Source: Eledone cirrhosa | Lineage: Eukaryota | Reading direction: 5' to 3' | NCBI GenBank assembly: GCA_964016885.1 | Contig: OZ024740.1 | Coordinates: 52,204,001-52,268,000, forward strand | Length of the DNA stretch: 64,000 nucleotides | Shown: positions 17,408 through 62,215 of the stretch, in pieces | How positions within the stretch are numbered: position 1 is the first letter of the stretch | Layout of the letters: every line of letters starts with the position of its first letter | Position numbers and translations under genes: made by a program | Notes under the pieces: generated by a model | Told to the model about the DNA's origin: nothing | What the model saw: only the letters and a program-made list of their open reading frames with translations | The model's database searches: none

Positions 17408-17720
17408 ATATATATATATATATATATATATATATATATATATATATATATATATATATATATATATATATATATATATATATATATATATATATATATA
17501 TATATATATATATATTGTTATACTTGGGGAGGGTCATATTTGTGTAATATTGCCAGAATTAATAACAGAACACACTCACTGTTTGGTTGGTTTTCGCTTC
17601 TCGTTTCTGTGTCTTTTATATCGGTAATCTAACTTACTCGGTCCTCAATGTTGCCATTGACTGACCGACGGTCAAAAATAATACAGATACAATATAGACA
17701 CAAACACATATATATAGTTT

Positions 17721-17762
17721 ATCATAAATCTTTCGTTGCACATCTGCAACATCGTCAGTGGT
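17721..17762 (-). ncRNA. Hammerhead motif in PLE-1 pseudo-LTR
   Basis: acca-CTGACGA-t-gttgca(gatg)tgcaac-GAAA-GATT-TA-tgat; weak helix I; copies at 31636-31677(-), 33338-33379(+), 44606-44647(+), mutated copies near 26085-26127(-) and 26776-26817(+). Confidence 0.6.
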
Positions 17763-17997
17763 GTTATATTTTCCTCCTGTTGTGTTGTATGTCTACGCCA
17801 TTTTTATTCAGTCTGTCTATATATTTATTTATTTATTTGCTTGTTTGTTTATTTTATTTTGTCTTCTATGCGTATGCGTTTGCGTGTGTGCATAGTGTTA
17901 GGTTTGCTGTGTGATGGGTGACTAGTGTGTGTTTATGTGCTTGCTGTTATTCTGCTTGTGTATGTATTTATTTATTTATCTTATTTTATTTACTTAT

Positions 17998-19210
17998 TTA
18001 TACTTCTCTTAGGTCAGTGTTGTTTGTTTGGGTGTTGTTGTTATTCCATTCATTCTTTCTGTTTAGCCTTGGTCTTCTAATTTCCATTTCACTGGCCTCT
18101 CTGATTTGCCTATCTGCTGGGTCATTTCTATGTTTAGATATTATTCTAATTTCTATGTTGTCTATGTTACCGTCATGTTGTTGTCTAGCATGTTCGTATA
18201 GTACTGACCCGTTTTTTCGTCCTTTTAGTTCCCCCCAGTGTTGGTCTATCCTTTCACCTATGCTACGAGCTGTCTCACCTATGTATGTTGTTGTCATGTC
18301 TCTGCAAGTACCCTCTGTACATCTTATGCTATAGACTACATTTCTAGTTTTACAGTTTATCCGGCGGTTCACCTTACATATGATACATTTCCTATTGGTA
18401 CAGTGGGTTTTCTTAAAAGGGTAGGTTTTGCTGATCAGGGATTTTATGGTGGTTCCTGGCTTTTCTACCACCTTTATTTTTAAGCGAGTCTTTCTCAGGG
18501 CCTTTCTACACTGGTTAGCTAATTTCCCTCCAGGGGTGGCGTCCACGAACATGACACTCTGGTATCTCTGGTTGTCGTACCATGAGGTGGCTTTCCCTAT
18601 CTTATGTCTAGCCCTATCTAAGCTATTCCATGATTTGCTCCTGTATAATGGGCAAATTCCTTTCATGTCCAGTTCTATGAGGGTCTTATACTTTTCCATG
18701 GCTCCTTCGTATACTCTGACTCTGTCTCTTTGGTTGTATCCAGAGAACTGCATGCGGTTGATGAAGTGTTGGATGTGTCTTTCCATTTCTGTTGGGTCGC
18801 ACATGCGGGACACATTCTTCATCACTCGTACCAAATTTGCGATCAGAATATTAAACTTAGCACTACTGGACATTGCTGAGTTTTTGAGTATCAGGTATTT
18901 GGAGGCCATGGGTTTAGCATAGTGTGAGTGGAGAATTTGGGCTCTCTCGTCTATAGTGTTAATCCGGAGTTCTGTGTCTAATACAGGTAGTCTATTGTTA
19001 GGGTGTTTGGAAGGGAAGTCGATAGTTACAGTTATACTCTGGTGTATGGAATTAGCTATCTGCTGGATGCTTTCCATCGTGCTACGTTCTAAATCAAACT
19101 TGTTAGTGCTCTCTAGTGGGGGTGTTCTTATAACTATATTGATATCGTCTACATAACGAGAGTACATGATGAGGTCTATGGAGCTTTCATTAAGGAGATC
19201 TTTAAGTCTA
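17998..19210 (-). CDS. PLE-1 reverse transcriptase (C-terminal half) plus GIY-YIG endonuclease, 5'-truncated
   Basis: RYVDD, LPVLD, HYAKPMAS, CIIC...NVVYSIRC...YIGETARS...R..QH, RQIREA. Confidence 0.9.
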
Positions 19211-58897: not shown

Positions 58898-59250
58898 TGT
58901 ATATATGTGTGTGTGTGTGTGTGTGTGTGTGTGTGTGTGTGTGTGTGTGTGTGTGTGTGTGTGTGTGTGTGTGTGTGTGTGTGTGCGCGCGCGTGTGTGT
59001 GCGTGTGTGTGCGTGTGTGCTCGCGTGTGTGTAATAAAAAAATCAATCGATGTGAAAATGGAAAAAGGAAAAATAGTGCTCAATCTGGTATGAGAGGTGA
59101 TATATTATATTATTTATTTATGTTTATACATGGAACAAGAGTGCTACCCAAGGTATCAAGATCCAATTATGACCAACTCCCCAGATAGAAAAGTAAAAAA
59201 TGAGAAATGGTCATAATTGGATCTTGATACCTTAGTAGCGCTTTTGTTCC

Positions 59251-59618
59251 GTGTAAGGGTGTTGGACTTATGATCATAATGTAGGGGGTTCGATTCCTGG
59301 GTTGGGTTGCGTGTGTGTTCTTGAGCAAAACACTTCATTTCACGTTGCTTCAGTATACTCAGCTGAAAATGAGTACCAGCAATAACTGAGGGTTTAACTG
59401 TGTCAGTAAAACTGAGTAGACGGAAACTGTTTCGAAGCCCGTCGGATTGACTGTACCTGTAATTCAAAGGGTCAGCTTTGTCACACAATGTGTTGTACTG
59501 AATCTGCCTGATAATTAGGTTAAGAGTACACATGTCTGTGGAACGCTCAGCCACTAACATGCTATTTTCATGAGTAAGCTGTTAAACGCTCGTCGTCGAA
59601 AGTGACGGAGCTCCAACG
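59251..59618 (+). mobile_element. Second tRNA-derived SINE family
   Basis: B box GGTTCGATTCC, body cttgagcaaaacacttcatttcacgttgc. Confidence 0.7.
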
Positions 59619-61420
59619 ATCGATCGATATCTTAAGTATGTACCTCAGTATAGCTATAAACGTATAAAAGAATATAAAGTTTGTGCAAATCTCCACACAA
59701 CTGTTCTATTTCTTTCGCTCCTCTTTTATTCCTTTATCCGGTATGATGGATCCTACACCCAACCATACTCCCTTACACTACACTCTACTCTCTACTCTCA
59801 AGAAGGAAGCCCTACACATAATTTCTATGAAAATAATTCCACACTCCCTTTCTGACTCATTATTTCTTCCTCTCTCACTCTCTCTCTCTCTCTCTCTCTC
59901 TCTCTCTCTCGCTCTCTCTCACACACACACACACACACACATATAAGCACACACACACATACACACACACACTCCCAAATACACACACACACAGCGCACA
60001 GATTTTCTCACCTGTTTTCTCTCTCTCCCTTCCTCCCTCTCCTTTCTTTCTAAACATTGTATGATTATGTTTCTTTTCCAGCTGTTTATATATATATGTG
60101 TGTGTGTGTGTGTGTGTGTGTGTGTGTGTGTGTTGTATTAAAACTACCGATGGGAACCAAAATGATATATTGAAAGCTATGTTGTCTCAGGAATTGATAT
60201 TAAAACTATCAAAGACCCGTTTGAAGAGGGATAATGCAATTATTATACCTCAAACCGACTCCATATGTTTAAAGGGCACCGCTAAATCGACTCCACTTTT
60301 TTCATTTATTTATTTGTTATCGCTTTTGAAATCAAGATTGTGCGAAAAAGGATGAACCCACTAGAATTTGAACCCTAAAGGAGATTGAAAAGAGGTTTAG
60401 ATGATAAACTATGCTCTCTGATTTTTTTTTTCTTACCCTCTCATACTGTTGTCTCTCTTTATTTATTTCATTCTCTCTCTCTTTATCTCCATTTGTTTCT
60501 CTCTCTCAATATATATATATATATATATATGTGTGTGTGTGTGGGTGTGTGTGTATATTTATTCCTTACTCTCTAGCTTTATCTCCTTTTGTTTCTTTCT
60601 CTCTCGCTCTCTCTCACTCACACACACACTATCCCTCTCCCACATACACACTCTCCATCTCGCATTCAATCAAATACCCCTTCATACACACACACTCCCT
60701 CATACACACTTCTCTTCTCTTTCCATAACTTCCTTTAAAACTCTTAATAGATAATGTGGAATATGTAATGTCGAGTTGAAGAGAATTAGTTGAATAAAAG
60801 GTGTAACAGAGGAATTTGGTTTCAAGAAATAATTTTACATCTTGGTGATTCTCAGGAATTTTAACTTGTGTGCATGCGTGTATATGTGTGTGTATATGTG
60901 TGTGTATATGTGTGTGTATGTGTGTGTATGTCTGTGTGTGTGCGTGCGTGTGTATGTTTCCCTTCCTTTTTTTAATAAATTACCGCATTCTAGAGTTAAT
61001 AATAAATTACCGAGTTCTAAAGACTCGAGTTATAGGTTTAAGAAAAAAGAATTCTTTCACACACAGCCCCCCCCCCCCACAACACGCACACAAATGGCCG
61101 CTATAGGCGCAAGCATGGCTGTGTGATTAATATGTATGCATTTACATATGCACTTATATATGCGTGCATATATACATATCCGAAGTCAGCATTGTCTTCT
61201 ATCCTTTCGAGTTCGATAAAAAAATTTTCTTAAATGTACGAATCCAGTACTGGGGTCAATTCTTTCTCTGTATCGCTTTCTCACTGCCTCTCTATCACTC
61301 CCTATCCATCTCTGGAAGAAATCGCTGTGTTCAGACTTGGAGGGGAAATGTCCATAAGATGTTGTATGACGGCACCCCTATGACTGCAGCAGGAGTTACG
61401 GGAAAAAGAGAATATATATA

Positions 61421-62215
61421 TATAAACAGAAAAAATGAAACGAAATTTCATTTCTCACTCTTAGGACGGCTGTTACTTAAATATAAGTATGTATACGTAC
61501 ATACATATATGTATACAGACGTTCAGTAGTATGTATACATACATGCACACATATATATATGTACGTATGGATTCACCGAACATTTATTATAATGCTCGCT
61601 GTGTTTGTAAACACGATGTGTTTGTAAACACGGCTTAATACGGGATGTTTGTTTACAAACACACCGAGCATTATAATAAATGTTCGGTGAATCCATACGT
61701 ACATATATACATGTGTGCATGTATGTATATATATATATACATAGTACTGTACGTCTGTATACATATATGTATGTACGTATACATACTTATATTTAAGTAA
61801 CAGCCGTACTAAGAGTGAAAAATGAAATTTCGTTTCATTTTTTCCGTTTATCGTTTTCGGTACCACGGCCGATTAACTCACTCGATATGCAAATTAGGCT
61901 GCTCAGCCGTTAATATGCATAAGGAAAGTATATACTTTCAGACGTTCAATCATCTGACAGGAAGGTATACGTTGCTGACGATAGCTAATAAGCTTGAAAC
62001 TAGTAGAGCGTTCCTTTGTCAGTGTTGAACAAATGAGCAACGATGGTTGCTAGACACTGTACGGCTTAATTCGGGATGTTTGTTTACAAACACACCGAGC
62101 ATTGTAATAAATGTTCGGTGAATCCATACGTACATATATATATGTGTGCATGTATGTATATATACATACTACTGTACGTCTGTATACATATATGTATGTA
62201 CGTATACATACTTAT
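61421..62215. mobile_element. Family B element (inverted arm plus 1.4 units, period 431)
   Basis: Homologous to 35213-36265; HHR at 61970-62010 with core intact but helix I disrupted. Confidence 0.8.

Follow-up and report, generated by a model that had tools for sequence, protein, structure and literature searches.

A 64,000-nt stretch of the 3.0-Gb genome of Eledone cirrhosa (contig OZ024740.1 of assembly GCA_964016885.1, positions 52,204,001 to 52,268,000; hereafter the window) contains (TA)n arrays that are densely filled with inserted elements, among them Penelope-like elements (PLEs) lying head-to-head as inverted insertions. Each family has two discrete end sites, a short one (S) and a long one (L) that extends one tail further, and an inverted insertion almost always uses one of each. 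At the sampled loci, 101 inverted insertions of PLE-1, PLE-2, PLE-3 and the non-coding family B could be classified; 97 of them (about 96%) were S+L, three were S+S and one was L+L. The tail is the start of the next unit, the two arms of an insertion come from one source, and the L arm often ends at S. This pattern is a real, general and non-random feature of PLEs that was already known, and it is here counted and tied to a model of priming at two sites. The head-to-head insertions of PLEs and of a non-coding hitch-hiker in (TA)n probably arise when both target strands are primed, one at S and the other at L of a single RNA.

Short and long ends in the window

For every insertion in the window, both termini were read outward and then aligned to each other. 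An earlier note on this DNA had listed short and long end positions for inverted insertions, and all 12 of its named cases were reproduced within 5 nt. PLE-1 has short ends at 17516, 27014, 31436 and 44851 and long ends at 19258, 25825, 33638 and 44249. The ends of PLE-2 are at 20750 (short) and 24954 (long), those of PLE-3 at 36747 (short) and 43146 (long), and those of family B at 36265 and 62216 (short) and at 35214 and 61425 (long). The mini-foldbacks that the note had placed at 24965, 29101, 29630 and 44906 also follow the pattern, with one-sided extensions of 86 nt (24967-25287), 32 nt (29102-29572), 68 nt (29635-29924) and approximately 69 nt (44884-45077; 88 nt when a CT run is counted). 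Four additional cases were found at 28633-29067, 36342-36628, ~56630-56940 and 63622-63785. The tail measures 46-63 nt in PLE-1, in which the long end comprises two sub-sites (+46/47 and +58/59), 44 nt in PLE-2, 90 nt in PLE-3, 54-59 nt in family B and 32-139 nt in seven small families; hence, the range of about 45-90 nt given before was too narrow.

Pairing of ends across the sampled genome

It had been predicted beforehand that genomic copies would be short+long pairs with few S+S or L+L combinations and not random pairs, and the sampled loci agree with this prediction. Loci were chosen with queries upstream of S and hence blind to the end type (one locus was found otherwise); together with four unselected 100-kb blocks the sample amounts to 1.53 Mb, plus 22 short loci added later. 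Because each search scores only the best 40 candidates, young copies are favoured. Automated pairing resulted in 41 S+L, two S+S, one L+L and one unclassified insertion for PLE-1, 15 S+L and one S+S for PLE-2, 24 S+L for PLE-3 and seven S+L for family B. Duplicates were dropped (L010, L080, L082), one pair with a 565-nt TA array in between was excluded (L023), and one locus was scored S+L by eye (L091). After this curation 85 of 89 insertions were S+L compared to 50% expected under random pairing (p=4e-21), and the four unselected blocks gave 13 of 14 (p=9e-4) before 12 B cases were added. The new B loci contributed these 12 S+L insertions and five unclassifiable ones, which leads to final tallies of 41 S+L, two S+S and one L+L for PLE-1, 15 S+L and one S+S for PLE-2, 22 S+L for PLE-3 and 19 S+L for family B. 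The exceptions were inspected and are genuine (S+S at L012, L019 and L059; L+L at L134). Among the small families, E has 11 S+L, one S+S and one odd case, M has two S+L, one L+L and two unclear cases, and all classified insertions of G (two), H (three), D (three), F (one) and I (one) are S+L. A scan of TA-flanked segments that took no account of family was disturbed by TA runs inside the elements and did not enter the counts.

The position of the ends bears on the possibility that short ends are long ends whose tail was later lost through a deletion joining the TA-like S site to the flanking (TA)n, or that independent insertions lie side by side by chance. In PLE-1, -2 and -3, 4-5 TA-like bases come after S (the L site of PLE-2 has no such bases), and tail deletion may account for the three S+S cases. 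However, TA-terminated ends lie at S or L in 67 of 68 cases for PLE-1 and in 56 of 56 for PLE-3, and none of the longer internal TA runs of these families (up to 13 nt) is used as an end point. Moreover, young copies with arms 97-99% identical are S+L and not L+L, no TA array lies between the arms, and independent insertions would pair randomly. As a general cause, tail deletion or chance neighbourhood is refuted by the 96% S+L pairing, and we regard it as very improbable.

Two further observations come from the sampled loci. L009 and L010, approximately 1 Mb apart on contig C4, carry the same PLE-1 insertion with one flank in common and the other different, and represent either a segmental duplicate or an assembly haplotype. 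A TA-bounded insertion at L123:5880-6000 consists of a PLE-2 L arm and an S arm of family E, which belongs to another clade, with a 6-nt shared word at the join; it is either a chimeric event or the outcome of a later deletion between neighbours. Comparable cross-family joins are present at L018:5690 and L124:4840.

Arms and junctions

The arms of one insertion differ less from each other than from the arms of other insertions (2.3 vs 4.4%, 1.2 vs 2.1% and 2.5 vs 6.6%; n=19, 12 and 8), and 33-43% of non-majority letters are common to both arms of an insertion compared to 1-6% for different insertions. Judged from these shared variants, both arms come from one source.

Junctions could be resolved in 62 of 77 insertions, and the other 15 were dropped. 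The deeper arm is S in 34 of them and L in 26, while two are equal. L arms end no more than 15 nt from S in 11 of the 62, whereas the adjoining 30-nt bins hold 2-4 each. In PLE-1 proper the L arm stops at S in 7 of 27 cases, to which the window insertion at 44249 is added, and the next shortest goes 157 nt beyond S; of the 12 L arms examined in family B, five start between +1 and +13. The two arms overlap by 1-7 nt at 31 of the 62 junctions, whereas 10 junctions are blunt, 15 carry inserted bases and six overlap by at least 10 nt, probably through alignment overrun.

These depths are informative on the published proposals of self-priming or fold-back, in which a single cDNA or an antisense template is copied after folding back on itself, and the endonuclease resolves the intermediate with the tail at one end (PMC3846280; PMC8557442). 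A few near-perfect palindromes (family E in L127, family M in L009) and the 26 L-deeper junctions would be compatible with such a route. But only two of the 62 junctions are symmetric, the deeper S arms are impossible by copying back an L-primed cDNA, and tail-only L arms exist without any sequence common to the S arm. Because the S arm is deeper in 34 and equal in only two junctions, fold-back does not appear to be the main route; as a general route it is disfavoured, and we give it a low probability.

One junction contains foreign DNA. In the PLE-1 insertion 44249..44851, a tail-only L arm (44249-44317) is separated from the S arm (44395-44851) by an 83-nt segment at 44315-44397 that copies 45392-45474 with 97.6% identity. 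The source is the 3' end of a neighbouring decayed RTE-like long interspersed element (LINE; ~45378-46560, minus strand) 1 kb away, and the segment has no other occurrence in the 1.5 Mb sampled, which suggests a locally templated insertion during integration. Such LINE-derived sequence next to a tail-only arm would be expected from a cDNA end that lay free there. Furthermore, a family D foldback nested inside the L arm of PLE-3 (42446..43005; S left, L right) lies in non-TA DNA and is flanked by a ~14-17-nt target duplication with its S and L ends facing outward. This is a single case; (TA)n flanks mask target-site duplications.

Proposed two-site priming on one RNA

In the favoured model, the element protein would nick both target strands, and each free DNA 3' end would prime reverse transcription at one of the two fixed RNA sites. 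One RNA would offer S and L once each, which would exclude S+S and L+L. The L-primed cDNA would trail the S-primed one and then either stall at S or displace the leading cDNA, and finally the two cDNA 3' ends may be linked by microhomology end joining. Single-arm copies could result when the second end remains unprimed or its cDNA is lost. The end pairing, the two sites and the geometry of the arms are observed, and the use of one molecule, the displacement and the joining are steps that we infer. The earlier claim that both nicked (TA)n strands prime one RNA at two fixed sites remains the best model, given the shared variants, the fact that either arm can be deeper and the L arms that stop at S. 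Its addition that this twin priming is obligate did not survive, because single-arm 5'-truncated insertions are common and the S+S and L+L exceptions exist.

Several points weigh against the model. Single-arm tallies were made by eye, and only PLE-1 and PLE-2 truncated ends abutting (TA)n were counted. Among 39 PLE-1 target loci, 22 are inverted (21 distinct) and 17 lack a partner, 11 of which abut (TA)n at the truncated end (seven at S, four at L). The 34 PLE-2 loci divide into 17 inverted (two via micro-arms, L042 and L115) and 17 others, of which 12 abut (TA)n (eight at S, four at L). Altogether ~23 of 61 TA-bounded PLE-1/PLE-2 insertions (~38%) are single-armed, 15 ending at S and eight at L. 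Either site can therefore yield a single-arm insertion, whereas double-arm insertions use each site once. In addition, among the small families there is an S+S insertion in E (L127) and an L+L insertion in M (L009), and one of the five unclassifiable new B insertions is possibly L+L. Regarding the common source, only 9 of 39 insertions have the partner arm as the closest sequence, and arm-to-arm conversion would likewise raise the similarity. No PLE-2 L arm out of 15 lies within 15 nt of S, the shortest being +34, +44 and +58. The junction overlaps are taken from BLAST ends and are approximate. Finally, most L arms extend far beyond S, so that both arms copy the same RNA stretch, and overlapping arms would need strand displacement, a second RNA or the second repeat of a tandem transcript.

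The last point leads to the alternative that a dimeric protein asymmetrically holds two RNAs of the same locus, or two pseudo-LTR (pLTR) repeats of a tandem transcript, with one subunit at S and the other at L. Arm overlaps, which in most insertions range from hundreds of bases to more than 1 kb, would then need no strand displacement, and the shared variants fit one source locus equally well as one molecule. Nevertheless, the accumulation of L arms at S would be left unexplained, and there is no simple reason why two RNAs should rule out S+S and L+L pairs when either site serves in single-arm copies. We therefore consider priming on two RNAs or two repeats unlikely, though less so than fold-back, and prefer two-site priming on one RNA.

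Two other ideas on the arms were discarded. None of the arms was seen to terminate at the presumed hammerhead cleavage site, and all PLE-2 S arms extend past it. A stem-loop after each start site was sought by folding 15 sites, which gave z values from +1.1 to -2.7 without a consistent rank among windows of the same element (the family E S window was mis-registered). In PLE-3 (S and L), H (S), F (S) and E (L), a bulged RCTC...GAGY hairpin can be recognised 6-9 nt after the start site; for the other families it is not established.

Identity of the elements

PLE-2 matches Pfam GIY-YIG above the cut-off and RVT_1 weakly, whereas the Pfam search gave no match for PLE-1, PLE-3, E or H. PLE-1 and PLE-2 match each other at E 1e-13; PLE-3, E and H show strong mutual matches and weak ones to PLE-2 (E 2e-4 to 6e-4). 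YxDD and GIY-YIG-like motifs are visible in the PLE open reading frames (ORFs). Based on these features, PLE-1, -2, -3, E and H can be assigned to the endonuclease-positive (EN+) PLEs, which have a single ORF with reverse transcriptase (RT) and C-terminal GIY-YIG endonuclease. The Hydra clade is characterized by a CxCX5C linker, DKT and RWK-like motifs and an endonuclease without CCHH (PMC8557442). The E ORF contains CxCX5C, DKT and RWR and is missing the two cysteines between GIY and YIG, and the H ORF pieces contain CxCX5C; by motif, PLE-3, E and H thus form a putative second group of Hydra type, while PLE-1 (CX4CxxC linker plus CCHH) appears Neptune/Nematis-like. Because longer copies of E and H carry PLE ORFs, these mini-foldback families are doubly truncated PLE insertions. 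The sampled loci yielded no coding copy of families D, F, G, I and M.

The tail reads through into the next unit or the ORF start in copies of PLE-2 (L118, L120), PLE-3 (L062, L090), E (L017) and also B; no read-through copy was found for PLE-1 in the sample. Therefore, S and L both lie within a tandem transcript, and the EN+ PLEs here have tandem or inverted pLTRs whose tail is the start of the next unit. A candidate hammerhead core (CTGAnGA-stem II-GAAA) was found by pattern in PLE-1, PLE-2 and H, and the predicted stem II folds in PLE-1, -2 and -3. The 150 of 247 Rfam matches listed were microRNA-type noise and included no hammerhead.

Family B

Family B codes for no protein and is built of tandem 437-bp units, with hammerhead cores at 17108, 35580, 36016 and 61975. 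The presence of a type I hammerhead core in each unit makes it retrozyme-like by sequence. It obeys the short/long rule in its 19 S+L insertions, and its read-through copies run on into the next unit. Single-arm B copies end mostly at L, although a short S arm is hard to detect in the TA/TG-like sequence of this family. The window holds a single-arm copy, a 1.4-unit tandem on the plus strand that terminates at the long site (16803..17406), and two inverted insertions with L on the left and S on the right, 35214..36265 (cores 35580 and 36016) and 61425..62216.

Further features of the window

Three more PLE-1 insertions are inverted. The one at 17516..19258 combines an S arm of 1.69 kb (minus, 17516-19209) with a tail-only L arm (plus, 19204-19258) at a 6-nt junction overlap; at 25825..27014, L is left, S is right and subfamily variants are common to both arms; and at 31436..33638 an S arm of ~1.75 kb (minus) faces an L arm of 416 nt (plus, tail 59 nt), with one candidate hammerhead core per arm (31673 minus, 33342 plus). 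In the PLE-2 insertion 20750..24954, the S arm (20750-~21893, minus) is joined to an L arm (~21892-24954, plus) that carries a broken RT/GIY-YIG ORF, and the tail at 24911-24954 represents the beginning of the ORF in the following unit. A 39-nt piece inside this S arm (21855-21893) matches the ORF ~100 nt onward (23650-23688) and is an internal skip adjoining the inversion junction. The Hydra-type PLE-3 insertion 36747..43146 consists of an S arm (36747-40205, minus) and an L arm (40205-43146, plus), and a short insertion of the same family lies at 56631..56939 with L (a partial tail arm) left and S right.

The mini-foldbacks belong to families E (24967..25287; ends of a Hydra-type PLE with a 713-aa ORF at locus L017), F (29635..29924), H (44884..45077; ends of a Hydra-type PLE with ORF pieces at locus L047) and I (63622..63785, tail 49 nt). 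Families D (28633..29067, tail 139 nt) and M (36342..36628, tail 53 nt) form foldbacks, and the family G insertion 29102..29572 has an inverted arm of only 36 nt.

Other repeats were also noted. In family C (33865-35193 and 43163-44036), a non-coding unit of ~605-616 bp is repeated directly as partial tandems within (TA)n; the right end is constant, the left end varies, and no inverted copy was seen among eight matches. Family J (890-1720 and 27030-27327) has a hammerhead-like core (1016 and 27273, minus strand) and occurs as tandem and inverted pieces. A 557-bp direct repeat (50459-51013 and 52287-52843, 97%) flanks a 1.2-kb TA/TATG array within 50459-52843, and decayed LINE coding pieces with RVT_1, zf-RVT and Exo_endo_phos matches lie on the minus strand at 47941-50395 and 9986-12718.

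Relation to known systems and significance

In L1 twin priming, as Ostertag and Kazazian are said to have described it in 2001, the first primer reportedly sits at the poly(A) end and the second at a variable site, with arms that barely overlap. Under the favoured model, the Eledone insertions would resemble it in two target-primed cDNAs from one RNA and in an inversion possibly joined by microhomology, and a downstream cDNA halting at the upstream start would correspond to the tail-only arms. They differ in the fixed, internal position of both sites and in the wide overlap of most arms; only 11 of the 62 PLE junctions and five of the 12 new insertions of family B show non-overlapping arms of the L1 type, in which the first cDNA ends where the second begins.

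Complex insertions of EN+ PLEs with an inverted pLTR and a one-sided tail have already been described (Craig et al. 2021, PMC8557442; Adineta Pen2a, PMC3846280), so the inverted pseudo-LTRs and 3' tail that the earlier note took as established are indeed in print. The published insertions share the head-to-head inverted 5'-truncated copy, the extension at one end only, the tail over the next unit or ORF start, the (TA)n targets and the hammerhead core in the pLTR, which is a candidate core in the Eledone copies. However, their tail is called 'optional' or 'often at one end', measures 30-40 bp and is attributed to endonuclease resolution or self-priming, whereas the Eledone copies have tails of 32-139 nt, ~96% S+L by count and an excess of L arms ending at S.

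The Anolis PLE Poseidon (PAc) nicks and extends both strands of AT-rich DNA in vitro, and two internal RT start sites bracket its tail without strand preference for either (Frangieh et al. 2024, PMC11167929). The reaction uses uncleaved RNA, and the protein is predicted to dimerise (PMC11167929). The use of both strands and the two internal start sites bracketing the tail correspond to our findings and model, but the available text of that study draws no connection between the two sites of a single insertion and offers no explanation of inverted copies. Homology at the start site was also reported to be absent there, whereas in three of the Eledone families S has a TA-like stretch of 4-5 nt. 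Hence, the tail and the two in vitro start sites are already published, while a quantified pairing was not found in print. Likewise, no PLE pairing rule or twin-priming model was found in the papers searched, although Fig. S2 of PMC11167929 or older papers may show the pairing.

How PLEs form tandem and inverted insertions is named as an unsolved question (PMC8557442), and the later steps of integration were left open by the in vitro study (PMC11167929). The present counts turn a descriptive one-end tail into a constraint, namely that two start sites are coupled within one event. They also imply that fold-back is not the main route and that the downstream cDNA frequently stops at the site of upstream priming. 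Retrozymes have been proposed as likely PLE dependants, argued from co-occurrence and sequence relatedness (PMC7229834; bioRxiv 10.64898/2026.07.22.740005), and the term 'tail' has no occurrence in either text. Family B resembles these animal non-LTR retrozymes, a class proposed to be moved by PLEs, in its non-coding tandem units that each contain a type I hammerhead core; it differs from the published case by bearing the PLE end signature itself. This signature is insertion-level evidence for a retrozyme-like repeat using the PLE machinery. PLE integration may well be a built-in two-primer reaction, in which a dimeric RT-endonuclease would use one RNA at two fixed sites, prime from both ends of a staggered cut and displace strands with the trailing enzyme, and animal retrozymes, family B among them, would by the same signature be recognised as substrates on which PLE proteins act directly.

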